Part shown: in pieces, positions 5,728 through 58,536 of the stretch
How positions within the stretch are numbered: position 1 is the stretch's first letter
How the letters are laid out: the number at the start of each line of letters is the position of its first letter
Origin: Oligoflexia bacterium
Lineage (GTDB): Bacteria; Bdellovibrionota_G; JANQFH01
Direction of reading: 5' to 3'
Assembly: GCA_028277945.1 (NCBI GenBank)
Contig: JANQFH010000008.1
Coordinates: forward strand, 195,442-259,441
Length of the DNA stretch: 64,000 nucleotides
Notes under the pieces: model-generated
The model's database searches: none
What the model was told of the DNA's origin: nothing
The model's input: only the letters and a program-made list of their open reading frames with translations
Position numbers and translations under genes: made by a program

Positions 5728-5736
5728 TCTCCAAAC

Positions 5737-6675: not shown

Positions 6676-6688
6676 GGCCTACAGTGAG

Positions 6689-17643: not shown

Positions 17644-17648
17644 GCTAT

Positions 17649-18392: not shown

Positions 18393-18395
18393 CTT

Positions 18396-25611: not shown

Positions 25612-25616
25612 TTGTG

Positions 25617-35657: not shown

Positions 35658-37532
35658 CTAGGCACTATATCTCGCCAGTGATGATTGATTGTTCAATTCG
35701 GGCATTACTAGTAGCGGCACAGTATTCGCCAGCATTTTAGGTAGTAATTTCACTTTCCACTTAGTACATAATTCTTGAATTTCCATTTCTTCAAAGCGAG
35801 AAGTTACAAGTATTGATTGTTGCTCCAGCCTGTATTCCTTGATCAAATCCAATCCGGTTTTTTTACTTCCTAGCAATTCATAGTCAAAAAGATAAATTGA
35901 TGGTCCCTGTTCTTTATGTTGTGCTAGATAGCTTGATGCATCGGTATAATTAGACAAATCAACTTGATTAATGGAATGTAGATATTTCAGCGGGCCAAGC
36001 CGGTTTGTCCACACGTGGTGGATAAATATATCGTCGTCAAGTACTACAAAGTCACTATTTGGCTTTATATGAATTTTTGGAACATACCAATTTGGTGGAG
36101 GAGCCTTGGGAACTATCATCTTCACATTCGTTCCCATGTTTTGCCGTGAGTCTATTGTTAGTTCTCCATGCCAACGTCCTAAGGAGCTCTTCGCATAGTA
36201 TAAGCCTAGTCCTAATCCATGTTTCTTGTTAGCAGTCACACCTCTCTCTGTCGCTTTTTTAAGCAGTTCCTCTGACATGCCGCATCCATTATCCGAGACT
36301 TCAATACAAAAATTGTCTCCGGAACAATTGCATAGTCGTATACTAACTTCACCATTATTTGGAATAGCTTCCACGGCGTTATTAATAAGGTTCGAGAGAA
36401 TTCTTTTGAACTCGACAATCTCGACCTTCGCAAAGATACTATAGGCTTCTTCCGTAAAAACTGTATTAATCTTTATATCCTTACGTCCTGAAAACTGAAT
36501 CCTCTTTTCGGACACAAGAGTTTCTATAAGCACGGCGATCTGCTGAGTACTTACACGTTCGAAGTGAGTGTTGTCTAAATGGCGGGCATCCTGATCTGAG
36601 TAATAGGTATTGTCATTCCAAAGTAGCTGACGATGCTTTTCTACTAAGCTATTAGCAATATCCTGAATACGTGTGGCCGCTTGTCGCAAAAGAACACGTT
36701 GTTCTTCAGGGATATCACTAGAAGACTTGCCCAACATCTGCAAAGCAGTCAACGGTGATCTGATATCATGGGCCACTCTTGAGGCAATCTCGCCCATTGC
36801 GGCCTTCTTTGTTGCTCGTACTAGAACAGCTTGGGCTGTTTCTAATTCTTTTACCAATTTTCGAGTATTTTTGTATAATTCATTAATCTCCTTTATGTTT
36901 GAAAATCGTACTTCTTGAGAATTCTCAAATAGAGACCTTAGTCCATGTTGCGAAAGTCGTCTAGATAGATGCACTATCGGCCAAGTAATTTTTTTTCCTA
37001 TAACCCCTCCTATCCAGACGAATATAATAAATAGGGAAACAAGGGCTATTACGAGCACTACTAACGCTCGATAAACAGATCGTGATAATAGTTGTTGTGA
37101 AAAAACAATCTGGATCGTTGCTGCCATTTCTTTGCTAGTTTGATCAAAGTAGACATGAGAGGTAATAACTTCAGTTGAGGAGATTCCCTCACGTTTGGTG
37201 GTACTGCAGATTGAAAAATTTTGACTGTCAACAACACTTATACCCAAAATTGACCGGTCACGTAAAAGTATTTTACATTTTCTGTAGACTTCCGCATGGG
37301 CTCCTATAAGAAGACTGTGGCTTATGTCCTCGGTAAAGATGTTTACGATAGATTGGAACTTTGCTTGAAGCTCCTCCTCTGCACTCTTCTTTATCAAGTA
37401 GAGTGCCAATGCCCCACTAAGTACGACAGTTGCCGCCGTTATGACGGCTGAGGGAACGAACATAGCCCTGCCTAATGTCCACCTAAATCTCATTGTCTTT
37501 AGCCCACTGTAGTCGGTAGAGAGGAAAGTCAA
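35658..37532 (-). CDS. hybrid sensor histidine kinase (cassette C)
   Basis: Two TM segments. H-box VAHDIRSPLTAL. N-box NLINNAVEAI. G-boxes DNGCGM and HGLGLGL. Receiver-like C-terminus (FVVLDDD .. IYLFDYEL .. ILVTSR .. LPK). The start could be MRFRW (37493). Confidence 0.85.
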   Translation of the reverse strand: MTFLSTDYSGLKTMRFRWTLGRAMFVPSAVITAATVVLSGALALYLIKKSAEEELQAKFQSIVNIFTEDISHSLLIGAHAEVYRKCKILLRDRSILGISVVDSQNFSICSTTKREGISSTEVITSHVYFDQTSKEMAATIQIVFSQQLLSRSVYRALVVLVIALVSLFIIFVWIGGVIGKKITWPIVHLSRRLSQHGLRSLFENSQEVRFSNIKEINELYKNTRKLVKELETAQAVLVRATKKAAMGEIASRVAHDIRSPLTALQMLGKSSSDIPEEQRVLLRQAATRIQDIANSLVEKHRQLLWNDNTYYSDQDARHLDNTHFERVSTQQIAVLIETLVSEKRIQFSGRKDIKINTVFTEEAYSIFAKVEIVEFKRILSNLINNAVEAIPNNGEVSIRLCNCSGDNFCIEVSDNGCGMSEELLKKATERGVTANKKHGLGLGLYYAKSSLGRWHGELTIDSRQNMGTNVKMIVPKAPPPNWYVPKIHIKPNSDFVVLDDDIFIHHVWTNRLGPLKYLHSINQVDLSNYTDASSYLAQHKEQGPSIYLFDYELLGSKKTGLDLIKEYRLEQQSILVTSRFEEMEIQELCTKWKVKLLPKMLANTVPLLVMPELNNQSSLARYSA

Positions 37533-39042
37533 ATTGGTAGCGTTTTTCCGGGACTTTAATATGTTTGTGGTAAATTACCGGAGTATAAAGATGAAATAAT
37601 GGAACGATAAATGACTTTTCCTCAAACTCAATCATTAGATCAGTGTATTTTTCTAATCTCCGTATACGGTCAGATATGAAACTGATTTCATCAGCACCCT
37701 TTAAAAGCTTCGTTGTGGGGAAATTGCCAAATTGGATTGGATTTTTGGCTCGAAACAAGTCTAGGAAGCCATCTGGGTCTGGTATGACTCCAAAATAACC
37801 TACCATAATCAAATCGTAATCTTTGCTTTTTAGAAGAGGTATAACCTCTTCAATATTTTTGAACTCTATAATCGGGATCATACCTACGTTGGTCAACACT
37901 TCACTGATAGCCTTACCTACAGGTATGTTTAAATATTCTTTCCTCAAAACTATTCTAAGCTTTTTATGTTTTACTTTATTTTTCCAGAGCTTTTTGAAAC
38001 TGATCGGACTCATACGGCGAAAGTCACGTTCGTAGTATCTTCTTAGAAGAACGCCATGTGGTAAAAAATGCTTCTGATGGTCTATAAAGAAACCGGGTTT
38101 CTCTATCTGGGAAACTCGAGTTTTTATTAGCGCCGCAATATCTCTTCTAAAACTTTCATTACTTAGTGCTGGATTGTCAGTGTTTGTATATAGATGTAGG
38201 ATGCCCAGTCCTCCTAGACGGAGTAACTGATAATTATTTGGTAGTGTTCCCGGTTGTAATCCTGGATCAGCAAAGCCTAATGCGAAGTCAATCGAGTCAT
38301 TCCGTAATTGTGATAGTAGTTGATTTGCGCTTTCTACCCGTCGAAACGAAAGCCTGGATATATGGCTATCATTGGGAACGAACGGAACCATCTGCAGACG
38401 ATTTGGCAGTTGTACTGAGTCCAGAGAAAAAGAGCCAGACCCCACTACCTGAGAAGAACTACCAGAGGACTTTTTAGTTACACCGTAACCAGGTACTGCT
38501 AACAATTCTAACAGATACGGATACGGACGCTTGAGGCTTAGAATAATCGTGTGCTGATTCGGAGTGATAATTCCCGATGGTATTTGTCCATCTTTCAGGT
38601 TTTCGGCACCTACCACGATACGACCTAGATAGCTGGATATTTGCGTCATACTACCTTGCCATAAATGGCGTGACAGACTAAAGGCGATATCTTTACTCGT
38701 AATGAGCGCACCATCATGGAACCGAGCATGACGATCCAGATGAAAGCTATAACGTCTTCCATCTGAAGATATCTTCCAGCGCCTTGCAAGATCAGCTGTA
38801 ATACGATTTTCTTTGTCTAACTTTACTAGAGTGCGTAAGTATGGTCTAAGAAGGTCAGAATGTACGTAATGCCACGCATCTATTGGATCCAGAGAGCTGG
38901 GCAAAATAGGCAACGCTATCTCAAAGCTGTTGGTTGTCTTACGGTACTTCTGTTTAGATGATGCTGCATAAGTATGAAAGACAAATGAAAATAAAAGAAA
39001 GTGCAACAGGCACGCCTTCATCAAAATGTGAATGAGTTTCAC
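37483..39042 (-). CDS. periplasmic solute-binding protein, family 5 (cassette C)
   Basis: Signal peptide LLHFLLFSFVFHTYA. Signature region LARRWKISSDGRRYSFHLDRHARFHDGALITSKDIAFSLSR. The 3' end overlaps the HK ORF. Confidence 0.85.
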   Translation of the reverse strand: MKLIHILMKACLLHFLLFSFVFHTYAASSKQKYRKTTNSFEIALPILPSSLDPIDAWHYVHSDLLRPYLRTLVKLDKENRITADLARRWKISSDGRRYSFHLDRHARFHDGALITSKDIAFSLSRHLWQGSMTQISSYLGRIVVGAENLKDGQIPSGIITPNQHTIILSLKRPYPYLLELLAVPGYGVTKKSSGSSSQVVGSGSFSLDSVQLPNRLQMVPFVPNDSHISRLSFRRVESANQLLSQLRNDSIDFALGFADPGLQPGTLPNNYQLLRLGGLGILHLYTNTDNPALSNESFRRDIAALIKTRVSQIEKPGFFIDHQKHFLPHGVLLRRYYERDFRRMSPISFKKLWKNKVKHKKLRIVLRKEYLNIPVGKAISEVLTNVGMIPIIEFKNIEEVIPLLKSKDYDLIMVGYFGVIPDPDGFLDLFRAKNPIQFGNFPTTKLLKGADEISFISDRIRRLEKYTDLMIEFEEKSFIVPLFHLYTPVIYHKHIKVPEKRYQFDFPLYRLQWAKDNEI

Positions 39043-40130
39043 TGCGTACTCCGGTCACAGTAGATCTCAATATCATTCTGTTTTATCAGTATATGTTTTT
39101 GTGTATACGTTACTTCTACGCCTTTATGGTGTGCTTTGTAATCATATCTATAATGACCATCGAAATATCGGCATATTTGTAACGGCCCTGATTTTTTTAG
39201 TAGGTCTGTCACCCCCAATTGTAGAGGATTTTTATTTCCCGAACGTGATGACGAGGCCATCTCCTGAAACGGATGCAATTTTGAATCAATTCGCTTAGGT
39301 ACATTAGGATGAGCGTAATAAAATATTTCTCTGTCACCGCACTTCCTAAAGTAATAGGGAATGTCACCTCGTTCTAATTGTTCTAGCTCACTAGGTAGAA
39401 ATTCGTTCCCGTTTAAATTATTCGCCTTCTTTGTCAAGAAGGAATGATAATCTCTTGTAGACCGAGGAATGACCCGAATCGGATTTTGCATGAATCCATC
39501 AATGGAAGCAAAAAGATTCGCTGTGAGTTCTGTTACTGATGAGAGAAAGTTCAATGCGTCAAAAAAACCAAAGCAAATTGCAGCAACGCCACTGTGGGAT
39601 CTATCCAACTCTCGAAAGTTATTTAATAGGTGGGAGAGTCCTGAATCTTCAAATGTCAATGCAGGGGAAGGTATGAGTGCTGTTTCAGAGAGAAGTGTGT
39701 GATCTTCAAAGATACATTCTATATCGATAGGGCTGAATATGATACTGCCAGCAGAAGTCTTGCCAAGCAATACATTGGCACGGTGCAGATCTCCAATTCC
39801 GAACCAAGTAATAAGTGCGATGGTACGGCCAATATCTTCTAATACTTCTAAATCTAGATCTTTGGAAATGAGAGGTTTAAGTAGGAGTTCCTCTACTCTG
39901 CCAAAACATTTTTCACCAGGAGATGACATTTCGACATATAGTTTTGGTAAAGATCTTCCTGGGTATACAAATCCCCTTTTCTTAGCTTCAGATTCTAATA
40001 AAGATGTTAAGGGACTTAATCGAGATAAGAAGAGGTATTCCCAAAATACAGTTCTAGGCTTGCAAATCCTTTGGGTACCATCACGACAAACTCGCTGTCC
40101 AAAATTGTGAGGGTCGCCTAACGGTTGCAT
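39039..40130 (-). CDS. stand-alone kinase-like protein resembling the LanM N-terminal (DUF4135-type) domain
   Basis: WFGIGDLHRANVLLGKTSAGSIIFSPIDIECIF contains a D-x-H-x-x-N catalytic-loop pattern followed by (I)D.E. As I recall, this is how class II lanthipeptide synthetase kinase domains read. No LanC-like cyclase domain is attached. Overlaps the SBP start by 4 nt. Confidence 0.45.
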   Translation of the reverse strand: MQPLGDPHNFGQRVCRDGTQRICKPRTVFWEYLFLSRLSPLTSLLESEAKKRGFVYPGRSLPKLYVEMSSPGEKCFGRVEELLLKPLISKDLDLEVLEDIGRTIALITWFGIGDLHRANVLLGKTSAGSIIFSPIDIECIFEDHTLLSETALIPSPALTFEDSGLSHLLNNFRELDRSHSGVAAICFGFFDALNFLSSVTELTANLFASIDGFMQNPIRVIPRSTRDYHSFLTKKANNLNGNEFLPSELEQLERGDIPYYFRKCGDREIFYYAHPNVPKRIDSKLHPFQEMASSSRSGNKNPLQLGVTDLLKKSGPLQICRYFDGHYRYDYKAHHKGVEVTYTQKHILIKQNDIEIYCDRSTQ

Positions 40131-43254: not shown

Positions 43255-43343
43255 AACCTTGACGGATTTAAGCGATCAGGGTAAGCATTTATAATTAGAC
43301 GAGATTATAAATGAGCTTAGAAAGGGAAGCGCAATGCGGAGTT
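43255..43343 (+). repeat. about 90-nt repeat, copy 1 (copy 2 at 47261..47352)
   Basis: The shared ends AACCTTGACGGATTTAA and GATTATAAAT.AGCTT.GAAAGG.AA..GCAATGCGGAGTT flank a diverged middle. The repeat includes the ATG (MRS..) of the SBP ORF. Confidence 0.6.
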
Positions 43344-44740
43344 CAAAAATTGGTATGACAAACGTTCCAAGTGACCTTGATCCATTGAAGGCACGATATG
43401 CTTACGACCTGATGATGAACGCATGCGTTTTTTCGCGACTTGTACAGCTTGATGGTAATGGTCAGGTGGTGTCAGAGCTTGCGTCCAGTTGGAAGGTTAG
43501 TGATGCAGGAGATGAGTATACCTTTACCTTGAATTCGGACGCGAGATTTCATGATGGGTCACCAGTAACAGCTCGAGATGTTGTCTATACCTTCGAAAGG
43601 ATCTTGAAGTCAGATCGGCCACCTGCTTCGATTCTTCGTCTAGCATTAGATCCTTCCTTTCGTTCGGATGAGGATTGTCCGGTAAAGGCAGTGAACGATC
43701 GTCAGGTCAAATTTCATTTACCTGGTGCGTACCCGCCATTTCTGTCTCTGCTTTGTAATCCTGTTTTTGGAATAGTTGCTCAGGATAGTGATGGTAAGAT
43801 TGGCTCTGGTCCAATGGTGCTGGAGGCTGACGAGCATAGTAAGACATTGAAGTTTAAACCCTTCCAGGAAGGCGCCGGTCTCGGCGAGTTTTATGTAAAG
43901 CAGATCTCCCGTGACAGCTTACCGGAAGTTATTGCCGAAGATGAACTAGATCTGATTTTTGGGCTCAATTCAATAGATTTTCAGAACGTAATCCGCATAG
44001 ACCCATACAAGGTCGTCAGAGGCCATGATTCGTTTGTCGCTCACTTTTTATGCAATACCAAAAGTCCAGTACTAGATTCTTTAGAGAGGCGACGTAATCT
44101 AAGCTATTTGATCAATTCGCTTTCAGATGAAGTGAGCAATTTAGCAGAATATCAAAAACCGCTGAAAAGTTTTCTACCAAGTGGGTTGTTGTCGCCATCT
44201 TATTACCAGAGAGCAACATCGCCTGTATCCGAGGATGCCTTTAGTGCAAAAAACAGCCAATTCAAAGCCCAACCGCTGCGTATCGTGGTTCAGAAAGGTA
44301 TTTTTTCTCAGAGTTATATGAGTGCGCTAGGTTCTCTAATAGAAAGGCTAGGTATGGTACCTGATATTCAACTAGTGGATTCAGACGCATTATGGAACCG
44401 CTATGCAAAGGATGATTATGATCTTATATCTTTTAGTTACAGTTTGGCGATTCCCGACGATCCAGATGGCTACCTATGGCCCTTCGACAATAAGGAGCTC
44501 GGCATTGATAATCGGTTTCCTATGAGCTCTTTTCTTCAGAAGATTGAAAAGGTCCGTTTTACGTCGAACCAGAAAGAGAGACTCGAGCTCTATGAACGTG
44601 AGTTCAAGCAGTTTGAACAGGAACATTACTTTATTCCAGTGCTTCAACATGACCATCTTATTGCTTTTAAAAACCGGAGCGAAATACCGACTTTAAAGCC
44701 TACATTCCTTTATCGATTGTCTGATTTTATCAGACCTTAG
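43334..44740 (+). CDS. family-5 solute-binding protein lacking a signal peptide (possibly truncated/inactive) (cassette E)
   Basis: It aligns with the cassette B SBP from ..LKIGVSILPQTLDPMK (here MRSSKIGMTNVPSDLDPLK) onward, so the leader peptide is missing. The new 5' end is supplied by the 90-nt repeat. The rest is intact (..ASSWKVSDAGDEYTFTLNSDARFHDGSPVTARDVVYTFER..). Confidence 0.75.
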   Translation: MRSSKIGMTNVPSDLDPLKARYAYDLMMNACVFSRLVQLDGNGQVVSELASSWKVSDAGDEYTFTLNSDARFHDGSPVTARDVVYTFERILKSDRPPASILRLALDPSFRSDEDCPVKAVNDRQVKFHLPGAYPPFLSLLCNPVFGIVAQDSDGKIGSGPMVLEADEHSKTLKFKPFQEGAGLGEFYVKQISRDSLPEVIAEDELDLIFGLNSIDFQNVIRIDPYKVVRGHDSFVAHFLCNTKSPVLDSLERRRNLSYLINSLSDEVSNLAEYQKPLKSFLPSGLLSPSYYQRATSPVSEDAFSAKNSQFKAQPLRIVVQKGIFSQSYMSALGSLIERLGMVPDIQLVDSDALWNRYAKDDYDLISFSYSLAIPDDPDGYLWPFDNKELGIDNRFPMSSFLQKIEKVRFTSNQKERLELYEREFKQFEQEHYFIPVLQHDHLIAFKNRSEIPTLKPTFLYRLSDFIRP

Positions 44741-44959: not shown

Positions 44960-46414
44960 CTAATTCACTATTAGGCTCTCCATAAACTGGCGGCCTTCGG
45001 TAATTGCCGCATCGGTAATTTGATCCTTTAAACCTGTGGCATTCTTTGCCCAACACTCAGGGCTTTTTGAGAATAGGAATCGCTGCTGGTTGGCCTTGAA
45101 CCCATATTGGTGTCCGCCACCTCTGCCGCGCTGGGCGTGACCGTTGTAAGAGGTACAATAAGACATCTCTGCCCATTCTAAATCCTCTCGTCTCGCTTTC
45201 AAAACCAATGCCGGACAATCATCAAACCATTTCAACACGGCATCTGCCTGTTCACTACATTTAAGCAAAAGACCAGAGATAACATCCATAAAAGCCATTC
45301 CTGCCATACACTGACCTACACTCAACTTTTGCGGCCTATGAATATGCCGATGCATCCAATGCCAAACAGGCATTAAAGAAGAGTGTAATCCATTTACCAG
45401 TTCATGCATATAGGCTCGTTCGTATTGTACTACCGGATCTTCAGAATTGATTGATCCGATCAAAAATTCTTCTTTAATCTTTATCTTCATCTCTCCATTG
45501 TTTTCAAAAACCCATTTTTCAAACATCTCGTCTATAGCCGAACGGATCATCAGCATTACAAAATCCCATGCTGAACCACTAAGATAATGCCTTACAAAAT
45601 CGTGCCCCGTACCTGTCGCCTCCTCATCACTCCAGTTTGGCGGTAGTTTTTTTGGCACTGCTCTGATAATTCGATCTTGCTTCAGCGTAATATGCAATGG
45701 CTTGATATAAGGGGTGTCTCCAGGACCTTTTGCTCTAGATAAATCACCCAACTTAGTTCGCTCAAACCGAGTATCAGACACCTTACTTGCTGGCGTTGCC
45801 ACTGAAATCAGCATCATGATACCTTTAAAGCCTCCGTTATCACCCTCGAACATCACCTTTTCATAAGCCTCATTTGAAAAGAAATTCCCTTGTGAGTGAC
45901 TGACTGTTAATGTATTGTAACCTTCCTCCAGTGATTTTCGATAAGCCGCTACTTGTTCAGCAATGTCAGCTCTTCTTTGTCTGTTCACAAATTCGTCAAA
46001 TAACCCCCTAATCGACTTAGAGATGTTCACCAAAAAATCCGGCGCTAGGTGCTGCTGGGAGAACAGACGAAACATGCTCCCTGAATCTAAGACAACGTTT
46101 TTTCTACGCAGATCGTCCCGCTTTTGATCCATTGCCTCGGCAATCTGCAGCAAAACTGTTTGATCGGTGTTGAACGCGATGTTCGGCTCAGCGTCTCGTA
46201 CTAGCCCTTCCACACCTCTCAAAACACGCATTTTCTCCCAAAGCTGAGTCCAAGATTTTTGTGCCTCCTCAAAAGAGGTAAACATTCCATTTGCGAAATA
46301 TAATCTCGATTTCCTCCAACACTCACCTGCACCATAACCTACCTCAGCCACAGTCAGCAGAACGACAAGGATCCCTAGAGCAATGTTCAAATTTCTACTT
46401 GTGTTCAAATTCAC
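44960..46414 (-). CDS. membrane-anchored/secreted protein with SHSQG nucleophile-elbow-like motif (putative alpha/beta-hydrolase or lipase-type effector)
   Basis: N-terminal anchor LNIALGILVVLLTVAEV. The motif LTVSHSQGNFF resembles GxSxG hydrolase elbows. The function is a weak guess. Confidence 0.55.
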   Translation of the reverse strand: MNLNTSRNLNIALGILVVLLTVAEVGYGAGECWRKSRLYFANGMFTSFEEAQKSWTQLWEKMRVLRGVEGLVRDAEPNIAFNTDQTVLLQIAEAMDQKRDDLRRKNVVLDSGSMFRLFSQQHLAPDFLVNISKSIRGLFDEFVNRQRRADIAEQVAAYRKSLEEGYNTLTVSHSQGNFFSNEAYEKVMFEGDNGGFKGIMMLISVATPASKVSDTRFERTKLGDLSRAKGPGDTPYIKPLHITLKQDRIIRAVPKKLPPNWSDEEATGTGHDFVRHYLSGSAWDFVMLMIRSAIDEMFEKWVFENNGEMKIKIKEEFLIGSINSEDPVVQYERAYMHELVNGLHSSLMPVWHWMHRHIHRPQKLSVGQCMAGMAFMDVISGLLLKCSEQADAVLKWFDDCPALVLKARREDLEWAEMSYCTSYNGHAQRGRGGGHQYGFKANQQRFLFSKSPECWAKNATGLKDQITDAAITEGRQFMESLIVN

Positions 46415-46898
46415 AAGGATCTACCTTTGGATCATGCCCGCCAAGCATCTTCCCTGAAAGCTTACCGTTGAACTCTATATAACGCCTCGCTCTTGCTCGT
46501 GTGTTCACTACGAGATCTTCGATTACCTCACCAGCCTCCCCAGCATAAGCCTCCAAATCTACCTTGGCAAAACAAAGCGATGCTCTCGTAATCTGTCCTG
46601 CCACTACCTCAGCGTCTAAGTCGTTTTTAAGGGCATTCTGTAGGGCCTTTGCCTGTTGTCGCATCGCCATCTGTACCATTCTATCTCCGGCATACTCCCT
46701 CTCAATGAGGGCTTCCACGTCATCTCGCACGCCGTCTTGGTTTTTATCTACCCCCTCAATTGTCTCGTCTTCTGCTTTCTTACTACAGGGCCCACATCCA
46801 GCTCCCACCAGGCTTCCTAAGGTAAGACTAAGCAGCAGGACAAAAGAGGCACCGGTCATACGGATTGTCTTCAGAATCAACAACCATAAATTCATCAT
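46395..46898 (-). CDS. small lipoprotein-like protein upstream of and overlapping 44960..46414
   Basis: Signal sequence with SLVGAGC (lipobox-like) followed by an acidic helical region. A 20-nt overlap with the next gene suggests a functional pair. Confidence 0.5.
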   Translation of the reverse strand: MMNLWLLILKTIRMTGASFVLLLSLTLGSLVGAGCGPCSKKAEDETIEGVDKNQDGVRDDVEALIEREYAGDRMVQMAMRQQAKALQNALKNDLDAEVVAGQITRASLCFAKVDLEAYAGEAGEVIEDLVVNTRARARRYIEFNGKLSGKMLGGHDPKVDPCEFEHK

Positions 46899-50306: not shown

Positions 50307-50425
50307 AATTCCCGATCGGTAATAAATAGGCCTCAAATCTGTCTTATTTGATATAAAATTCCCGATCAGGAATAATTTTCTTGATTTCAGTCTAGGTGTA
50401 GATTAATATTCCCGTACGGGAATAT
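50307..50425. promoter_or_regulatory. three palindromic operator-like sites upstream of hipBA
   Basis: ATTCCCGATCGGTAAT (50308-23), ATTCCCGATCAGGAAT (50358-73) and the perfect 20-mer ATATTCCCGTACGGGAATAT (50406-25), which overlaps the hipB ATG. The site centres are exactly 50 bp apart. Confidence 0.6.
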
Positions 50426-50654
50426 GAAACAGGCAGCAGCACAGATTGGTCATTTAGTGAAAAAGACCCGTAAAAGTCTAGGTGTCACCCAGAAGGAGTT
50501 GGCGCTGACCTCGGGTACAGGTCTGCGCTTCATCATTGAGCTGGAGAAGGGCAAACCGACCTGTCAACTAGCCAAGGTGCTGACGGTTCTACATACGCTG
50601 GGCATCAAGCTTGAGCTAACGGCGCCAGCCACTGCAAGAGATGACGGCAAATGA
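50424..50654 (+). CDS. hipB: HipB-like XRE-family antitoxin/repressor
   Basis: HTH LGVTQKELALTSGTGLRFIIELEKGKPTCQLAKVLTVLHTLGIKLEL. Overlaps hipA by 4 nt. Confidence 0.8.
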   Translation: MKQAAAQIGHLVKKTRKSLGVTQKELALTSGTGLRFIIELEKGKPTCQLAKVLTVLHTLGIKLELTAPATARDDGK

Positions 50655-51907
50655 GCAAGACTCTTGATGTTTATTTGTACCGCCACCTGGTTGGCTGCCT
50701 CATACAGGATGAGCATGGTCTGATGGTATTTGATTATGCAGAGAACTGGCTAGAGAATCCCAACGCAATTCCTCTATCGTGTTCGCTACCGCTAAGAAAA
50801 GAGCGCTTCTCGTTTAAGGAATGCCGAGGATTTTTTACCGGCGTCCTACCAGAAGAAAGTAAACGAGAGGTGATTGCGCGCATTTTTGGAATTAGTGCAC
50901 GCAATGACTTTGCCATGCTTGAGCAAATTGGCGGTGAGTGCGCTGGAGCAGTTACTTTCATTCCCACTGGTCAATTGTTGCCGGAGCGTGACGAGCACTA
51001 CCGTGAGGTTTCCAACCAAGAGTTGGCGGAAGTTCTTCGAACACTACCAACTCGGCCCCTTTTGGCGGGAGAAGAGGGCGTCCGTCTATCGCTAGCAGGT
51101 GCACAGGACAAAATTGCTGTTCGTATGGATGGCGATAGAATCTCCATTCCGCTTGGAGACTCTCCCAGCACACACATCCTGAAGCCCGACATCGAGCGTT
51201 TCCAAGGGGTGGTTTTCAACGAGGCGCTCTGTATGCAATTGGCGGCCTCTATCGGCCTACCAACGGCGAATGTACAAACCCGCAGCGTTGAAGGCATCGA
51301 TTATCTTTTGATTGAACGCTATGACCGAGTGGTTCATATGACGTCCGATGGTCAGGCAAAGCTTCAACGTCTGCATCAGGAGGATTTTTGTCAGGCACTC
51401 GGTATTCCATCCGAGATGAAGTACCAGAGCGAGGGAGGGCCATCTCTCAAACAGTGCTTTAGCTTACTGCGAGAAGTTTCCAGCGCACCGGTGATCGACC
51501 TACAGCATCTTCTAGATGCCGTTATTTTTAATCTGCTGATTGGCAATCACGATGCGCATGCAAAGAACTTTTCATTTTTGTATGGAGATGGGACATCAGT
51601 AGAGCGGGGGACAAGACTTGCACCTCTGTATGATCTGATCAGCACCGTCTATTACCCAGAACTATCCAAGAAGATGGCCATGAAAATTGGTGGTGAGTAT
51701 GCTGCAGACAAAATCTTCCCAAGACATTTTGAGAGACTTGCCGAAGAGGCTGCCTTAGCCAAGCCGATGGTCAAGAAACGTATACCGGAGGTAGCTGAAT
51801 CCCTGATACACAGTCTAAGCAGCTTAACTACTGAAGAGTCGGTAGCAAAGGGTGTCACTCAAACTATACAAAAGCAGGCTGAATTGGTTCTGGAACGATT
51901 CAGATAA
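50651..51907 (+). CDS. hipA: HipA-family serine/threonine kinase toxin
   Basis: LSLAGAQDKIAV and LIGNHDAHAKNFSF are HipA catalytic motifs. 418 aa. Confidence 0.9.
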   Translation: MSKTLDVYLYRHLVGCLIQDEHGLMVFDYAENWLENPNAIPLSCSLPLRKERFSFKECRGFFTGVLPEESKREVIARIFGISARNDFAMLEQIGGECAGAVTFIPTGQLLPERDEHYREVSNQELAEVLRTLPTRPLLAGEEGVRLSLAGAQDKIAVRMDGDRISIPLGDSPSTHILKPDIERFQGVVFNEALCMQLAASIGLPTANVQTRSVEGIDYLLIERYDRVVHMTSDGQAKLQRLHQEDFCQALGIPSEMKYQSEGGPSLKQCFSLLREVSSAPVIDLQHLLDAVIFNLLIGNHDAHAKNFSFLYGDGTSVERGTRLAPLYDLISTVYYPELSKKMAMKIGGEYAADKIFPRHFERLAEEAALAKPMVKKRIPEVAESLIHSLSSLTTEESVAKGVTQTIQKQAELVLERFR

Positions 51908-51913
51908 GGTTAG

Positions 51914-52268
51914 TTATTTCCCCCATCCGATATATTTCTTGTAACCTTTTTCTAAATTTATAATTTCAAAGACATCACCATCAAATGTTGAGCACTGCAA
52001 TTTTTTTCCATTACATCCAAGATTGGCGTAGTTAATTTCTGGCTGGTGTCTGGATGGCGGTGCTAGGGTCCACATTTCTTTACCGTTTAGATCGAACGCT
52101 CGGATGTTTTGTGGGTCTCTGGATTCAAAGAGAAAGACGATGAGTTTATCAGCTAGGTAGGCTGTTTGATACATTCCCACAATGCTTTGGGATTGGTACA
52201 GGCTTGAGGTTATCAGTTTTTATCTCTATGTTATCGCCGTTAGTAATAAAATATATTGAATTGAGCAT
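51914..52268 (-). pseudogene. second, frameshifted copy of the TNT-toxin immunity candidate
   Basis: The 3' part (51914-52180, ..LIVFLFESRDPQNIRAFDLNGKEMW..FEIINLEKGYKKYIGWGK) and a 5' part in another frame (ATG 52268: MLNSIYFITNGDNIEIKTDNLKPVPIPKHCGN..) together align along the intact 121-aa paralog. The frames switch near 52172-52185. Confidence 0.5.
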
Positions 52269-52292: not shown

Positions 52293-52658
52293 TTACTTAC
52301 CCCATCTTTTTTTAAAACCTTTTTCTAGGTTTATGATCTCGAATACATCGCACTCCACTGTAGCGCATAGCAGACTGTTTTCATATTCCCATAGATTGAC
52401 GTAGTAGACCTCCGGTCTATATCTAGATGCCTTTGTTAGTGCCCATAATTCATTGCCATGGAGATCAAAAGCACGGATATTCTGTGGGTCTTTGGATCTA
52501 AAAAGTACAATAATGATGTTATCGATCAGATATCCTACTGTAATCTTCCCATATGTTTTAGGAAGGAGTATGGATTTGTGATTGTCTACTTTTATTTCTA
52601 TTCTATTGTCTCTTTCTAGAAGTTTTTGTAATTTCACCATATTATTGGTTCGCTCCAT
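52293..52658 (-). CDS. cytoplasmic protein, candidate immunity protein for the TNT-like toxin
   Basis: No signal peptide. It overlaps the toxin 3' end. A tandem paralog lies downstream. Confidence 0.55.
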   Translation of the reverse strand: MERTNNMVKLQKLLERDNRIEIKVDNHKSILLPKTYGKITVGYLIDNIIIVLFRSKDPQNIRAFDLHGNELWALTKASRYRPEVYYVNLWEYENSLLCATVECDVFEIINLEKGFKKRWGK

Positions 52659-54766
52659 GCTTCAACCGATGATTCTAGAGGTTCATCAATCAATTCCCAT
52701 TGAATGCCTCCACCCGGAGTACCGAATTCATCAACTTTGTCGACGATTCCCTTTCTTAGAACAGTACTCGTAGGGACACGAACTTCGACCATGAAGGTCA
52801 TACTATTATTTGGAGGAAGAGAATATAAATCCCTTACAACACTTTTACTCAGAGTTCGAGGATCAACTTCCATTAACCATGGCCCCATTTTGTCAGAATT
52901 ATCTCCAAACACTCGATAGAAGATTTTTGTTTCTTTTAGTTCTATTGTTTCAACAATCTGATTTGGGGCATAGGGCCTGATACCTTTGGCATATTTCCAA
53001 TAGCTGTCAACCGCACCGGCGGTCTGTTTGCCAGGAAGAGCAGCTTTTGCCAGTTTGGTCCAGGTCGAGGCTTGTGTGAGCTCTTCTGGGGTTATCTGGT
53101 CCTTTTGTACGGCGCGGAAGCCGCGAAGGGAGAGGAGGACAGGACGTTTTTTGACGAAGGCTTCTACGGTCTCTGGGCCCAGCTCTGCGACCACCGTGGC
53201 GAATCCGGCGCTGGCCTGCTTTTCTCCGGAAATGGCCATCTTTAGGGCGATGGCTTGGGTATAGGGGCCGAGACGGGGCAGGGTATCGACAAGAACGCCA
53301 GACTGTAATGCCTTTGCCATCCTGGCGTGGTGGATTTTGGCGAGGGGGATGCCAACTTTACTCAAGACAACGCGTAATGATTGGACGCCGATGGCTCTGG
53401 CAAGACCGCCGATGGTATTAACGCCGAGGCTGCCGAGTGCCAGGACCGTTTCCCCAGCTATCCCTGGGGCAGTGATGGCGTCACGATCCACAAAGCCATC
53501 GGTGAGATACTTGGCGATGGCTGCTGCGGTTGCTGCTCGCAGGTAGTCGCCTTGGGAGAGGGCCTCTTGGCTACTGCGGATCTGCTCCTGCAGTAGGGCA
53601 GGTGAGTACGGTTGGTTGTAAGGGGTGATCTTACCGGCAACCACCTGCTGGTTGTAAAGGGCAGCACGGATCAGGGTGTTGAACACGGCACTTTCGGCTG
53701 CTGCATCGATCTCCGCCAGTCCTTCGTGCAGAGTGCGTTCAAAATCGTAACTGCGGAGAATTCCCGCCAGTCCTGAACGGAGTGTGGCGAGTTTCGTGCG
53801 CATGCTTTCAAAAAGCTCACGGGTTGCCAGCATCGAGGCATGCAAGTTGGGATCTTCAATCAGATCGGCAACAGCCTCGATGGTAAGCAGATGCAGATCA
53901 ACAGCTTCGGTGAGCTCTAAGACAAGATACTCGTCGTTGACACGAATGGCCTCCTCGACTTTGGCTCCTAGAGGCGCGTACGCAGCTGCCAGGGACTGTT
54001 TGAGTGGGTCTCTGAGAAGAGAGAGAGGATTTTGAAAGACATCATGGAAGATCTGTTCAGGGTTCCAGAGATTTTCTAGATCCACCTCCTGCATGGCTTC
54101 TTCAATGAGCTCTCTGTGGGTGGCACGGGCCATGTTTGCTACTGCCTTGTCCCCCTCTAAGGTATCGAGGCCGACGACAATGGTGTTTTCACTCAAGTGG
54201 CTCCATTTGAGATTTGCCTGTTGATGAAAGCGCTGGTAAAGCGCTTGCATCCGGGGGATTAAGGATTGTTGTTCGTAACCTTTCCACTGTTGGTGTTTGA
54301 TGCGGATCACTTCTGAATTGGGACGAACAGTGTGCAATGGCTCAGGTCTTTTAGGTGGCTCTCTAGGATCGACCTCACCAGGATGAGGTCTGTCCCAGTG
54401 AAAGGGATCGAAGTCATTAAAATGATCATGACCGTTGCTGTTGGGAAGGTCGTCTTCAGCATACTGTTCATCGACCGGATGAGGTCGTTCTGTCGGGTTT
54501 TTTGGGGATTCGTTCTTTACGGGAAATTCAACATCACGCTCCATCGTGACGGTGATTTTTCCTGTTTTAGGATCTATATAAACTCCAGGATAACCTCCAG
54601 GCATGATGTCTTTAGGCGCGTGGTTATTTCCTGGTTTTTCGACCTCGCTCCCATTGCCATCACCGCCGCCTGTTTCCTGAGCGCTAGCTGATAAATCAAC
54701 AGCTGATGTGGCCATGATATAGAGAGTCAACAAGAAGGTGATAAATCTCTTCAGAGAGTCCTTCAT
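52634..54766 (-). CDS. Sec-signal polymorphic toxin with C-terminal TNT-like (NAD+ glycohydrolase family) domain
   Basis: Signal peptide FLLTLYIMATSAVDLSASA. The C-terminus FYRVFGDNSDKMGPWLM..RDLYSLPPNNS..FMVEVRVPTSTVLRKGIVDKVDEFGTPGGGIQWEL resembles the TNT-domain pattern as I recall it (R.G...G.f .. LP .. y.V.. .. fg.pGGG.Q). Confidence 0.6.
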   Translation of the reverse strand: MKDSLKRFITFLLTLYIMATSAVDLSASAQETGGGDGNGSEVEKPGNNHAPKDIMPGGYPGVYIDPKTGKITVTMERDVEFPVKNESPKNPTERPHPVDEQYAEDDLPNSNGHDHFNDFDPFHWDRPHPGEVDPREPPKRPEPLHTVRPNSEVIRIKHQQWKGYEQQSLIPRMQALYQRFHQQANLKWSHLSENTIVVGLDTLEGDKAVANMARATHRELIEEAMQEVDLENLWNPEQIFHDVFQNPLSLLRDPLKQSLAAAYAPLGAKVEEAIRVNDEYLVLELTEAVDLHLLTIEAVADLIEDPNLHASMLATRELFESMRTKLATLRSGLAGILRSYDFERTLHEGLAEIDAAAESAVFNTLIRAALYNQQVVAGKITPYNQPYSPALLQEQIRSSQEALSQGDYLRAATAAAIAKYLTDGFVDRDAITAPGIAGETVLALGSLGVNTIGGLARAIGVQSLRVVLSKVGIPLAKIHHARMAKALQSGVLVDTLPRLGPYTQAIALKMAISGEKQASAGFATVVAELGPETVEAFVKKRPVLLSLRGFRAVQKDQITPEELTQASTWTKLAKAALPGKQTAGAVDSYWKYAKGIRPYAPNQIVETIELKETKIFYRVFGDNSDKMGPWLMEVDPRTLSKSVVRDLYSLPPNNSMTFMVEVRVPTSTVLRKGIVDKVDEFGTPGGGIQWELIDEPLESSVEAWSEPIIW

Positions 54767-54767
54767 G

Positions 54768-55964
54768 TTAATCTTCTTCTAGTTTGTTGAGAGCTAGTTC
54801 CGCGAACGCGGCATATGTGCCATGGCTGTCTTCGTTAGCGATTTCTGCGTAGAGTAGAAGTGCCTTTGCCTGTTCAAGCTCTGCTGGCAGGACTCTGCCG
54901 CTCTTTTCTAGCTTGCGGATACGCTTTTGGATCCAATAGGAAGGTGGATTCTTTGTGACCAGGCGTCGGTATTTTTTGACCTTTGCTGTCCATTCAACGG
55001 CCAGCTCTTTTGCCTTTTTCGCCTCTTTTTCGCGCAAATCAAGCGACAGTAGGGCATTAAGGAGGATGAGAGAACCTGTTTGCAGGACTTCTAACCTTCG
55101 TAGGGCCTCAAAGTAACGGTAGTGCAGGAGTAAAGCATCTTGAAACTGTTGCTCCAGCTCCACCAATACATTCTCGGCATCGTAGTAGGCGTCAAGACTG
55201 ACTTCTGCATGAGCCAGCCTCTCCTGAAAATCCTTGTACATACCATGGGCTAAAACTTCGGAGGTGTGGTCGAGGTATTTCTCCAAAGTTTCGCCATACT
55301 GCTCGAAAATGCGCCCATAAGCTTGCTCGACTTGTGGCAATGGTTGCCTGAGCTTTTCGCAGTAATCCACCAGAGGGGAGAAACCATGTGATTTGAGCCA
55401 AGAGATTGCACCTGCAAGGGATGGCTTGTAGCCGTATTGCAGATCTTGTGAATATTCGGGAGGAATGGCATCTACAAGTCGGTCGGCGTTGGTTTCGAGG
55501 ACGATGCGACACTGTGCTTCCATGGACGATAACGACCTACGGTATCGTTCCAAGGCCGTGGTGGCTTTATGTTCTTCCTCGGCAAACCCAAAAGCCGCCG
55601 TATGGAGCTTTTGTGTCCACTGCTTTGCCTCTTCAGCCCCTAGACTCTCAACCTCCGGAGGTTGTATTACTTGGACATTCTCAGCAGCTACAGCAATGGT
55701 CCTGAATGCAGACTTCATCACCTCACGATGTTTGACCCCTTGTAGATATGCCCCATTCAAGAAATCGTAGGCTTGCAGGCGGGCCTTTTCATGGACTATC
55801 TTGCGTTTTAGCTCATCTTTTTGCGTCTCAATTTCTCTCCTCTCACGTGCCATTTCTTCGACAGATTGTGCCTGACTAAGAGAAGGAAGTGAGACAAACA
55901 ACAAAAGTAAAAGAGGAAGATTGAACAGGTTTGTCATAACAACGTTACTTTTAATCGCCCTCAA
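54768..55964 (-). CDS. secreted coiled-coil accessory protein 'X' of toxin module 2
   Basis: The signal peptide ends SLSQAQSVEEM. It is helical and charged. Paralog of 20920-22077. It lies immediately upstream of the toxin with a 1-nt gap. Confidence 0.7.
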   Translation of the reverse strand: MRAIKSNVVMTNLFNLPLLLLLFVSLPSLSQAQSVEEMARERREIETQKDELKRKIVHEKARLQAYDFLNGAYLQGVKHREVMKSAFRTIAVAAENVQVIQPPEVESLGAEEAKQWTQKLHTAAFGFAEEEHKATTALERYRRSLSSMEAQCRIVLETNADRLVDAIPPEYSQDLQYGYKPSLAGAISWLKSHGFSPLVDYCEKLRQPLPQVEQAYGRIFEQYGETLEKYLDHTSEVLAHGMYKDFQERLAHAEVSLDAYYDAENVLVELEQQFQDALLLHYRYFEALRRLEVLQTGSLILLNALLSLDLREKEAKKAKELAVEWTAKVKKYRRLVTKNPPSYWIQKRIRKLEKSGRVLPAELEQAKALLLYAEIANEDSHGTYAAFAELALNKLEED

Positions 55965-55969
55965 TAGTG

Positions 55970-57538
55970 CTAATAGCGGCGTCCTACTTGGTCTCCATAT
56001 CTATCTAGTATAGGAGTTTGCGTCCTGTACTTTTTATCGCCTTCGATAGCCCCAATAGCGGCGTCCTCCTTGGCCTCCATACACTTTGTATAGAGCAGAT
56101 CGCGTCCTGTATCTTTTAAGGCGCGAATAAACTTTTGCAGGTGTTTGGTTTCATCTTGCACTTCAAAACTCTTGGAAATCAGCATGGCATGCAGCTCTGT
56201 TAAGCGAGTGAATGCTCTGCCTATCTCGTCTTCCGGGCCGACTGTATCTGTAGGTTCCTGCATAAGGCTGTAAACGGCGATCAGGCGCTCATAGTCGCTT
56301 AGCGACAATTCTTCGTCTTCATAGAGCTCTTCTACTGTCTTCCGAAACGCTTTCGGGCGCTTCTCGATCTTAGCTAGCGTCCATTCCTGCAGATTCCCTA
56401 CTTTTTTGAGTAACAACAGCCCTTCGAGTGTTGCGGCTGTAAGTTCTAACTCTTGGAAGGTATCGTCGTACTCCTCATCGTTTATAGCGCGGAGACGATC
56501 GATGATTCTTTTTAGCGAGGATTCGGATTTCTTGAAATAGGCTTTGAATATCCTGCGTGCCTCAAAATTGACCATTAACGCTCTTTCAAGATCTTCTTTG
56601 TCTGATTTAATTAGCGTTTCGAGCCAACTCAGGCGATTTTCTGCATCACCAAGGTTTGTGCAAGCTTCGAGCACAGAGTCTTCATAAACAAGGAGATCGT
56701 AACCAACGAGGTTAAGGGAGTAACTACGAAGCATCCCAACAGGCATTTTTATCTTTATTGTTGTGTTTCCCAGCAGGTCTAACTGCTGTCTCATGCTGGA
56801 CCTTGCTGTGTAGGTCCATCGCTGTGGTCCTCTTTCTTGACACCAAAATCCGTCTTTAGGATTATGATGGTGTGCGTGACGCCCATTTAAATTGCAGTAA
56901 CACCAGCCACTGTCACCCGTGTAGGTGGGTTTTCCATAGCGCCAATGATCCTCGGGAAAGACGATTTCAACACGGTGCATACGGTATAGAGAGTTTAACT
57001 TGCTTAAAGGGGTGTCACCGAGAAATGCATTGGTCGTCTGTTCGGTGCGAAATTTATTCCAGTCTATGACTGCGAGTGGAAGAGGAAAGTTTTCAATATC
57101 ATACCTCTTATAAGATGCTGGAGGATCTAACGCAGACGAGAAAGGTCGATAGCTGACGGTTGTTTGGGGAAATGGATATTTGTATTTAAACAGTGTTTCG
57201 TCATTTTGTTTATAATAGAGCTTAAAATAGACGTTGCTTCCTAAGAGCTGCTGCTCCAGCTCTCTATGTACTTCGGAATCATCAATTCCTTCGCCTTTCG
57301 CACCCATCTTGCCAAATAGCCGAACTTTGTAGGTGGCGGGATAGAGATATGATTCTCTTTCGTCAATATCCTCAAAATCTGAAAGGAATAATCCCAAGGA
57401 AGGAAGGCCTTGCTTCATCGCATAGCTGTTAACGTAGTAAATTTCACTCTTAGCCCAGGAGATTGGTGGAAAAATAATTAGGACCATGGTTAGAAGCAGA
57501 AAATATAGCCAGGGGATATGTGTTACTCGGTTTGACAT
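55970..57538 (-). CDS. secreted accessory protein 'Z' of toxin module 2
   Basis: Signal or anchor sequence WLYFLLLTMVLIIFPPISWA. The C-terminal helical half is homologous to 16150-17643. Confidence 0.7.
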   Translation of the reverse strand: MSNRVTHIPWLYFLLLTMVLIIFPPISWAKSEIYYVNSYAMKQGLPSLGLFLSDFEDIDERESYLYPATYKVRLFGKMGAKGEGIDDSEVHRELEQQLLGSNVYFKLYYKQNDETLFKYKYPFPQTTVSYRPFSSALDPPASYKRYDIENFPLPLAVIDWNKFRTEQTTNAFLGDTPLSKLNSLYRMHRVEIVFPEDHWRYGKPTYTGDSGWCYCNLNGRHAHHHNPKDGFWCQERGPQRWTYTARSSMRQQLDLLGNTTIKIKMPVGMLRSYSLNLVGYDLLVYEDSVLEACTNLGDAENRLSWLETLIKSDKEDLERALMVNFEARRIFKAYFKKSESSLKRIIDRLRAINDEEYDDTFQELELTAATLEGLLLLKKVGNLQEWTLAKIEKRPKAFRKTVEELYEDEELSLSDYERLIAVYSLMQEPTDTVGPEDEIGRAFTRLTELHAMLISKSFEVQDETKHLQKFIRALKDTGRDLLYTKCMEAKEDAAIGAIEGDKKYRTQTPILDRYGDQVGRRY

Positions 57539-57886: not shown

Positions 57887-57904
57887 CTCGTCCTGAGTAA
57901 GGTG

Positions 57905-58138
57905 ATGAAACAAGCGAAGCTATTTAAGAACGGTCAGAGTCAGGCGGTGAGACTGCCGAAGGAATTTCGTTTTAAGGGGAATCGGGTATTTATTCGTCGG
58001 ATTGGGAATGCTGTGGTACTTCTTCCTGAAGATCAGCCATGGCAACCACTGTTAGAAAGCCTGGAACACTTTTCAGATGATTTTATGCAGCAACGTCGTC
58101 AGCCTTCCTCGCAAGAGAGAGATCTCTCTTTTGACTGA
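57905..58138 (+). CDS. vapB: VapB-type (AbrB/SpoVT fold) antitoxin
   Basis: MKQAKLFKNGQSQAVRLPKEFRFKGNRVFIRRIGNAVVLLP is the typical AbrB-like antitoxin N-terminus. Its stop overlaps the vapC start. Confidence 0.8.
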   Translation: MKQAKLFKNGQSQAVRLPKEFRFKGNRVFIRRIGNAVVLLPEDQPWQPLLESLEHFSDDFMQQRRQPSSQERDLSFD

Positions 58139-58536
58139 TGTATCTTCTTGATACCAACATTTGTATTTATATTATCCGAAAAAAACCGAAGAAAGTATTA
58201 AACCAACTGCAGTCTATATCTCCTACTGAGATTGGCATCTCTGCTGTGACCCTTGGCGAGTTGCAGTATGGTGTTGAAAATAGTAAACAGCCGACAAAAA
58301 ATCAAGAGGCGCTGAATTATTTTTTGGCACCATTAGAAATCTATCTGTTCGGTGTGGAAGCAGCTCAGATGTATGGTAAGGTACGTGCTGATCTCGAGAC
58401 CAGAGGCAAGACCATTGGGCCGTTTGATACGATGATTGGGGCACACGCTTTGGCATTAGGGGCGATTTTGGTTACAAATAATACTAGGGAGTTTTCGCGG
58501 ATTAAGAGTCTATCTGTCGAAAACTGGACTCGGTAG
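58138..58536 (+). CDS. vapC: PIN-domain ribonuclease toxin VapC
   Basis: MYLLDTNICIYII.. (first acidic residue), then ..SAVTLGELQYG.. and ..VTNNTREFSRI. 132 aa. Confidence 0.85.
   Translation: MYLLDTNICIYIIRKKPKKVLNQLQSISPTEIGISAVTLGELQYGVENSKQPTKNQEALNYFLAPLEIYLFGVEAAQMYGKVRADLETRGKTIGPFDTMIGAHALALGAILVTNNTREFSRIKSLSVENWTR

Follow-up and report, generated by a model that had tools for sequence, protein, structure and literature searches.

NAD+-depleting toxins are a widespread weapon, and their known carriers include secretion systems of type VI (T6SS), those of type VII (T7SS), contact-dependent inhibition (CDI) systems, Rhs proteins and CpnT. The NADase groups now recognised are Tne1 to Tne5, TNT and AfNADase, and the TNT-like NADases have a conserved Gln, an Arg and aromatic residues as their common active-site features. 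In TNT, the C-terminal domain of Mycobacterium tuberculosis CpnT, mutagenesis has defined the catalytic Gln822 and a glycine cradle (Gly813/815/818); Arg780 is essential as well, and a salt bridge between Asp756 and Arg780 (DRxG and QRxL motifs) has been proposed (PMC6398120). The NAD+-binding Arg757 of the DRxG motif has an aromatic residue, Tyr765, nearby (PMC6398120; PMC10539506), and Tne2-like domains have been found on LXG and Rhs proteins (PMC10539506). Here, we analyzed a stretch of 64,000 nucleotides (the window) from an Oligoflexia bacterium (assembly GCA_028277945.1, contig JANQFH010000008.1, positions 195,442 to 259,441 of the forward strand), with a focus on a gene for a 710-aa protein that a preliminary description, made from the sequence alone, had taken to be a polymorphic toxin with a TNT-like NADase domain. 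We consider the best explanation overall, and a probable one, to be an exported toxin with an NAD(P)+-hydrolysing C-terminus of the TNT/Tne type, a cognate immunity protein and accessory proteins that serve its delivery.

The toxin gene (52634..54766, minus strand; P0001) was identified by open reading frame (ORF) translation and forms a singleton cluster in a collection of 5.8 billion proteins. It is part of a minus-strand operon spanning 57538..52293, in which a 522-aa accessory gene (55970..57538) is followed by a 398-aa accessory gene (54768..55964), the toxin and a small putative immunity gene (52293..52658), which encodes 121 aa, or 115 aa when read from Met7 at 52640, the start used in the public record (P0153). 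The genes are closely packed: 5 nt separate the two accessory genes, the stop of the 398-aa gene lies 1 nt before the toxin start, and the small gene overlaps the end of the toxin, as had been noted before, by 25 nt, or by the 7 nt ATGGTGA if Met7 is the start. The region first singled out, 52293..54766, thus consists of the toxin and the small downstream gene. All three large proteins carry signal peptides, while the small protein has none and also lacks a hydrophobic segment, for which reason we take it to be cytoplasmic. By composition the 398-aa protein is all-helical, and the 522-aa protein, read by eye from its sequence, appears beta-rich in its N-terminal half and helical in its C-terminal half.

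The identity of the warhead is carried by the C-terminal domain (residues 577-710; 52637..53038, minus strand), predicted from homologue search, profile and fold to be an NAD(P)+ glycohydrolase of the TNT-like kind. When the last 170 residues were searched with HMMER against 1.84 billion representative proteins, 302 proteins matched at E<=1e-3, the best at 5.8e-21, and at the level of sequence the resemblance to this protein family is far beyond chance. In the 150 proteins listed, with lengths between 90 and 3446 aa, the match lies at or near the C-terminus. A Pfam scan of 96 homologues found TNT in 18 of them, next to a variety of N-terminal domains, namely PT-TG (12), LXG (3), DUF4280 (2) and RHS (2), plus PT-HINT and DUF637. 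When only the domain sequences were scanned, TNT was found in 6/40 and was the sole Pfam family at E<=1e-3 (best 3.6e-8), while NCBIfam models matched none of these 40 sequences; a tblastn search of the domain against plasmids found nothing. The proposed check against the Pfam TNT profile therefore had a divided outcome: a direct match of the window protein stays below threshold, but its homologues do reach TNT, and the C-terminal resemblance that had been proposed is upheld. The protein P0051 forms a bridge, with 29.6 bits on TNT (cut-off 27) and an E of 7.1e-8 to the window domain, while the closest relatives, P0004 and P0005, have no TNT match; we therefore place the window protein in a clade beside the curated TNT family rather than inside it.

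The conserved residues of this family point in the same direction. Gln689 (codon at 52700..52702, minus strand) is the only residue that is invariant in the family alignment, and Arg618, Gly628, Trp630, Leu650, Pro651, Val662, Gly685 and Gly686, each at least 90% conserved, are all kept in the window toxin. In a profile alignment with TNT (4qlp_B), for which the profile match itself has an E of only 1.1, the family's ..FG.PGGGIQ.. lies over ..GCGQPGGSIQ.., which places Gln689 on chain position 175, the catalytic Gln822, and Gly682 and Gly685 on Gly815 and Gly818. Gly682, Gly685 and Gly686, just upstream of Gln689, thus correspond to the glycine cradle. Arg618 (codon at 52913..52915, minus strand; FYRVFG motif) and Trp630 are near-invariant and stand in the order and at the spacing to be expected, and the former is the probable counterpart of the NAD+-binding Arg757 of TNT: it lies 71 residues from the Gln, compared with 65 in TNT, and the Asp of DRxG is absent (PMC10539506).

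The predicted structure agrees with this assignment. An AlphaFold2 (AF2) model of residues 590-710, based on a 40-sequence alignment, reached a predicted local distance difference test (pLDDT) value of 91.2 and a predicted template modelling score (pTM) of 0.83. Its structural neighbours are Tne2 (13.4), the Serratia Rhs1-CT (6xtd; 10.9), AfNADase (8.9), a Fusarium 'TNT domain' NADase (8.8), Tse6 (8.7) and TNT (6.2), all six of which are experimentally proven NAD(P)+ glycohydrolases, while classical ADP-ribosyltransferases and RES toxins score 4.6 or lower. The window domain therefore shows the palm-domain fold of the group formed by TNT, AfNADase, Tse6 (Tne1), Tne2 and Rhs1-CT (Tne3). One of these neighbours, 6XTD, had been considered as an EF-Tu ADP-ribosyltransferase, which was ruled out, as the paper shows the Serratia Rhs1 NADase. 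A lack of any TNT similarity in profile or structure comparison, which was to count against the preliminary description, was not what we found, and judged from its sequence and its modelled fold the warhead very probably acts as an NAD(P)+ glycohydrolase.

We then considered the small downstream gene. Alone, the 121-aa protein matched nothing in NCBIfam or in Pfam (a set without the DUF7957 model), and a profile of the immunity family gave no relevant match in the PDB, while a search of the 5.8-billion-protein collection returned only proteins of this genome (its paralogue). Its relatives were found next to relatives of the toxin domain, in four metagenomic loci (L081 to L084) where the toxin domain (E 5.8e-21 to 6.7e-8) and the immunity protein alike have their closest relatives. 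L081 (toxin P0012) has two tandem 116-aa small genes, the first of which overlaps the toxin end; L082 (toxin P0004) has a 121-aa gene; L083 (toxin P0049) has an overlapping 123-aa gene; and L084 has an overlapping 155-aa gene. The products of the first three carry precomputed DUF7957 annotations (weak in L082), while that of L084 has no precomputed Pfam hit. In a database of 20-30 sequences, the L082 protein was matched at E 3e-14 by the paralogue of the window gene (imm88) and at E 1e-6 by the 121-aa gene product itself, and the L083 protein was matched by the window small proteins at E 5e-5. Against the L081 pair alone hhalign gave a weak match (E 0.012), and weaker similarity reaches L084 and L086. 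Six small proteins align collinearly, with D40, N54, G62, W66 and G108 invariant. The link to DUF7957 (PF25857), for which we found no literature, thus runs via homology to small proteins that bear that annotation. The toxin domain and the small protein travel together across at least 4 loci, as is characteristic of toxin-immunity pairs, and in its sequence relationships the small gene has the traits of a cognate immunity gene.

The paralogue is a second, frameshift-split copy directly downstream (51914..52268, minus strand). It is 50-55% identical to the intact gene and aligns over its full length, at 50% identity, once the frameshift near 52175 is repaired: the N-terminal 39 codons run from the ATG at 52268 and an 88-codon ORF (51914..52180) continues in another frame. 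The public record gives only an 86-aa product (P0154). This copy may be an orphan immunity gene in decay, or its break may stem from an error in the assembly; a tandem duplication of the small gene is also present in L081.

In comparison to the warhead, the rest of the toxin resembles little else. The full protein has no Pfam or NCBIfam match, no PDB match by sequence search and no relative in 185,579 species genomes, and a word-indexed search of the 5.8-billion-protein collection returned only proteins of this genome. The peptide strings quoted in the preliminary description are all present in the 710-aa translation (GVNTIGGLARAIG at residues 447-459, and also RVFGDNSDKMGPWLM, SLPPNNS, VEVRVP and FGTPGGGIQWEL), and the N-terminal features it listed were recovered as well. 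A Sec-type signal peptide covers residues 1-29 (54680..54766, minus strand), with the sequence MKDSLKRFITFLLTLYIMATSAVDLSASA followed by QE, charged n-, hydrophobic h- and AxA c-regions, a predicted cleavage between SASA and QE, a Kyte-Doolittle peak over residues 5-29 and a confident N-terminal helix in the AF2 model; it was assigned by rule of thumb rather than by a dedicated predictor. Residues 30-150 (54317..54679) form an acidic, Pro/His-rich region that is probably disordered, judging from its composition and a pLDDT below 50, and that holds the motifs DPKTGK and FDPF. They are followed by an orphan region (residues 151-575; 53042..54316) without Pfam, PDB or PT-TG match, in which AF2 predicts exclusively helical secondary structure at low confidence (the full-length model, with a mean pLDDT of 57, is of no use N-terminal of residue ~575). 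Within this region lies the Gly-rich hydrophobic segment (residues 433-470, APGIAGETVLALGSLGVNTIGGLARAIGVQSLRVVLSK; 53357..53470), containing the sole internal hydropathy peak of the protein (residues 441-459), at the place where the nearest homologues have their PT-TG pre-toxin domain, which it does not match. A degenerate PT-TG domain (PF14449) was considered and rejected, as Pfam gave no match and both window toxins were missed at E<=10 by a jackhmmer profile made from 13 homologues' PT-TG regions. A 542-aa secreted protein encoded upstream in L082 (1647..3275, plus strand of that locus) carries YDPFDMVDPKTGKPV, which echoes the DPKTGK and FDPF motifs of the window toxin (residues 59-82 and 116-122); FDPF is also found in the toxin of module 1, described below. 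The echo may perhaps reflect a short shared docking motif.

A second arrangement of this kind, module 1 (16150..22077, minus strand), comprises genes for a 385-aa accessory protein, a 594-aa RES-domain toxin, a 248-aa and a 247-aa protein, and a 497-aa accessory protein. Its toxin (19139..20923) carries the RES domain (PF08808) at residues 482-591/594, with 47 bits against a cut-off of 23.2 and an E of 3.6e-12, which bears out the statement that the warheads of both modules come from NAD+-using families. The accessory proteins of the two modules are homologous: the 398-aa and 385-aa proteins are 21% identical over their full length (BLASTP E 1e-8, shuffle z 16), and the 522-aa and 497-aa proteins match at E 4e-10 (shuffle z 16), so that the modules themselves are paralogous. 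The claim of one chassis with a swappable warhead therefore holds for the accessory genes, but the N-termini of the toxins are not demonstrably related. BLASTP between the 710-aa and 594-aa toxins found only the signal peptide (E 2.2), and Smith-Waterman alignment against shuffles gave a z of 2.3 when the N-terminal regions were compared and of 1.0 when the comparison was confined to the first 120 residues of the mature proteins, so that the recombination junction that was to be located by aligning the two toxins cannot be placed. The pentapeptide GGLAR, common to both toxins, was considered as a pre-toxin junction motif and set aside as not beyond chance: at least one shared pentapeptide occurs in 33% of shuffles, and the three found here (RTLHE, ALKMA and GGLAR; n=3) are not collinear, with P(>=3) 0.018. 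As for immunity in module 1, the RES toxin is followed (17649..19142, minus strand) by the 248-aa cytoplasmic protein, whose start overlaps the toxin stop, and then by the 247-aa secreted protein. Neither has a family match or resembles the module-2 immunity protein, and the 248-aa protein, as a candidate immunity protein, does not match the Pfam models that a RES antitoxin would be expected to hit, those for a helix-turn-helix (HTH) of Xre type.

These results can be set against the description of polymorphic toxins that Zhang, Aravind and co-workers are said to have given in 2012. By that account, a C-terminal toxin domain recurs on unrelated N-terminal trafficking or presentation regions, a cognate immunity gene lies directly downstream and co-varies with the toxin domain, and paralogues reportedly share an N-terminus up to a junction after which their C-termini differ. 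The window domain does recur on LXG, RHS, PT-TG, DUF4280, PT-HINT and DUF637 proteins; for the 710-aa and 594-aa pair, no common N-terminus that would carry exchangeable C-terminal domains was found.

With regard to the accessory proteins, neither matches Pfam or NCBIfam, PDB searches with profiles of both families came back empty, and the 522/497 profile found only proteins of this genome in the 5.8-billion-protein collection. Their positions have counterparts elsewhere: the order in L083 is 513 aa, 373 aa, toxin and immunity gene, that in L084 is at least 558 aa, 355 aa, toxin and immunity gene, and in L082 and L081 the toxin is immediately preceded by a secreted protein or lipoprotein of 387 or 487 aa. 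When the accessory proteins were compared, profile against profile, with the proteins in the matching positions of L082 and L083, the E-values were 0.17-0.6, and the parallel in chassis across loci is one of size, order and signal peptides alone. It is possible, and we put it forward tentatively, that the 522-aa and 398-aa proteins and the helical Gly-rich N-terminus of the toxin constitute an undescribed Sec-dependent delivery device, such as a secreted multi-protein toxin particle or a translocon with interchangeable NAD+-targeting warheads, whose gene order (a beta-plus-helical protein of ~500-560 aa, a helical secreted protein or lipoprotein of ~355-400 aa, the toxin and a DUF7957-type immunity gene) recurs in other uncultured lineages, namely L083 and L084 and partly L081 and L082, with components diverged beyond recognition.

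Taken together, we propose the following mechanism. The toxin would be exported by Sec, and its last ~130 residues would fold as a TNT/Tne-type palm domain that binds NAD(P)+ and cleaves the nicotinamide-ribose bond, using Arg618, the aromatic Trp630, the Gly682/685/686 cradle and Gln689 as active-site elements. A cell into whose cytoplasm the domain passes would stop growing as its NAD(P)+ is depleted, while the small cytoplasmic protein would bind and block the toxin domain in the producer and its sister cells. Release, and entry into a target that would probably be competing bacteria, would fall to the two secreted proteins transcribed with the toxin and to its helical Gly-rich part. A number of results weigh against this proposal. 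A cytoplasmic immunity protein is no proof of a bacterial target, given that in SPN/IFS and CpnT/IFT such proteins protect producers of anti-host NADases. The full 710-aa protein has no TNT (PF14021) match at E<=1, and its isolated 115-aa C-terminus scores 12.1 bits (E 0.27, cut-off 27) over profile positions 30-74/88; the family profile's match to TNT (4qlp) is no better than the E given above, and Tne2 was not retrieved by sequence. Asp756 of DRxG and Arg780 of QRxL have no conserved counterpart in the window-domain family, which has F/Y-x-R-V-x-G and A/S-L-P motifs at the salt-bridge sites instead. At the sensitivity used, the toxin N-terminus and the accessory proteins have no homologues outside this genome, and no secretion apparatus is visible within the window.

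We weighed these points together with four other explanations of the locus. That the same enzyme is an exotoxin against eukaryotic cells (protists or a host), with the accessory proteins as a pore or translocon in the manner of streptolysin O and the immunity protein guarding the producer only before export, we regard as unlikely. In its favour, each of the three large proteins carries a Sec signal peptide, the toxin is without the trafficking domains (T6SS, T7SS and CDI) that its homologues bear, and nga-ifs-slo and cpnT-ift provide precedents. The TNT encoded by the latter is treated in PMC6398120, and among fungi and mycobacteria the superfamily has members that act on host cells (PMC10539506). 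Against this, most homologues with a recognisable N-terminal domain have it from interbacterial systems (LXG, RHS, PAAR-like or CdiA-like), tandem or decayed extra immunity copies, which both this locus and L081 show, are a typical trait of interbacterial toxin loci, and a second module with a RES warhead is present in the same genome region. The carriers of the homologues and the decayed extra immunity copy thus favour a bacterial target, while the pure Sec architecture keeps an anti-eukaryotic role like that of SPN and streptolysin O alive.

The nature of the domain leaves less room for choice. An ADP-ribosyltransferase that modifies protein or nucleic acid, rather than a simple NAD+ hydrolase, appears very unlikely, since the invariant Gln is followed, two positions on, by a variable residue (E, D, Q or K), which leaves no ExE motif, and the conserved Ser-Thr-Ser motif is absent. 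We find it hardly conceivable that the domain is a decayed, inactive remnant: its singleton sequence, its sub-threshold Pfam score and the frameshifted adjoining immunity copy would fit such decay, but all invariant and near-invariant positions of the family are kept, the fold is predicted with high confidence, and the cognate immunity gene has stayed intact, with its coupled start. Equally hard to credit is a toxin-antitoxin or abortive-infection pair that acts inside the cell and never leaves it, considering that the protein is 710 aa long with a signal peptide and ~550 non-catalytic residues, that its two co-operonic secreted partners are kept in the second module, that PADLOC gave no match for the toxin, the immunity gene or the accessory proteins, and that the homologues are C-termini of polymorphic toxins. 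The exported, NAD(P)+-hydrolysing toxin with its cognate immunity protein is therefore the explanation that we prefer.

Several other features of the window may be of interest. On the opposite strand, two toxin-antitoxin pairs of classical type flank the toxin operon, a downstream HTH and HipA pair (HipBA; 50424..51907, plus strand) and an upstream MazE-type antitoxin with a PIN protein (57902..58536, plus strand). Four repeated cassettes, each with a family-5 solute-binding protein and a hybrid sensor histidine kinase, are found at 3907..8248, 12609..14607, 22314..26933, 35658..40130 and 43334..44740, some with additional short YcaO-like genes (5737..6675 and 13582..14607), major facilitator superfamily (MFS) transporters and a DUF4135 (LanM-N-like) gene. 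One cassette adjoins module 1, and L082, the locus of the closest toxin homologue, likewise adjoins a hybrid kinase and a nitroreductase-like gene; the cassettes may represent peptide-signal sensing linked to the toxin modules. At 44960..46898 (minus strand), a 484-aa secreted protein with the motif VSHSQGNF (GxSxG-like) comes after a lipoprotein of 167 aa (lipobox LVGAGC) that overlaps it, a pair on which Pfam and PADLOC were silent and which looks, from these motifs, like a lipase-type effector with a periplasmic immunity protein. Another potential toxin-type enzyme is a 396-aa Fic/DOC-domain protein (9717..10907, plus strand; Pfam E 2.6e-14). Finally, a SelB-like translation factor (488..2617, minus strand) has its best matches, in a set of 185,579 species-representative genomes, in many different phyla and at no more than 36% identity, and its distance, together with the many singleton proteins, suggests a source lineage that has no close sequenced relative in that collection.

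While the enzyme class is known, the locus adds a well-supported member of a clade that is related to TNT, is left unnamed by the current Pfam and NCBIfam models and is paired with the uncharacterised immunity family DUF7957. In addition, the toxin sits on none of the known carriers, having instead just an orphan helical region behind a Sec signal peptide, with two secreted proteins as its dedicated partners, an undescribed arrangement that is duplicated with a RES warhead. If these partners are a delivery machine, they would represent a new interbacterial or anti-eukaryotic intoxication route in a lineage without close sequenced relatives; if they are not, the locus is one more NADase effector-immunity pair.

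The comparison with known systems makes clear both what is shared and what is not. In Streptococcus pyogenes, the NADase SPN is exported by Sec, its immunity protein IFS is cytoplasmic and encoded downstream, and the co-transcribed secreted streptolysin O serves entry into the target. The window operon follows the same logic, but the likeness is a functional analogy only, as Pfam and PDB searches of the operon gave no match to SPN, IFS or a cytolysin. The signal-peptide PT-TG toxins of L081 to L084, with their DUF7957-type genes, are nearest in sequence; those of L081, L082 and L083 have signal peptides or lipoboxes (the called start of L084 has neither), and in all four loci the toxin directly follows one or two helical secreted proteins of ~355-560 aa, the gene order being the same. 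They differ from the window toxin in possessing the PT-TG pre-toxin domain, and their N-terminal regions and accessory proteins cannot be aligned with those of the window. Serratia marcescens Rhs1-CT/RhsI1 (Tne3; 6XTD) and Tse6/Tsi6 (Tne1; 4ZV0) differ in being T6SS effectors on Rhs/PAAR carriers and share no sequence-level similarity with the window pair. With TNT of M. tuberculosis CpnT and its immunity protein IFT (PF14021; PDB 4QLP), the window toxin shares an aligned catalytic Gln and glycine cradle, a C-terminal position on a longer exported carrier, a cytoplasmic immunity gene directly downstream, and relatives that reach the TNT profile. It differs in reaching only 12 bits against the cut-off of 27, in lacking conservation of the DRxG Asp and the QRxL Arg, and in having a smaller domain (~130 aa compared with ~200 aa); its N-terminal carrier has no detected relation to that of CpnT (no Pfam or PDB match with the full protein), and in the PDB search the immunity profile did not match the immunity chain of 4QLP. 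The T6SS effector Tne2 of Pseudomonas protegens, with its immunity protein Tni2 (PDB 6B12), is of the same compact size, and homologues of the window domain bear the same LXG and Rhs N-termini as Tne2-like domains. Here, the differences lie in the identity of 12-14%, with 6b12 not retrieved by the family profile at E<=10, in the immunity protein, which has no detectable similarity to Tni2, and in the carrier, Tne2 being a PAAR-type T6SS effector while the window toxin has a Sec signal peptide and neither PAAR nor DUF4280. The window domain is therefore closest to Tne2 by fold and to the TNT family by sequence, being a formal member of neither.

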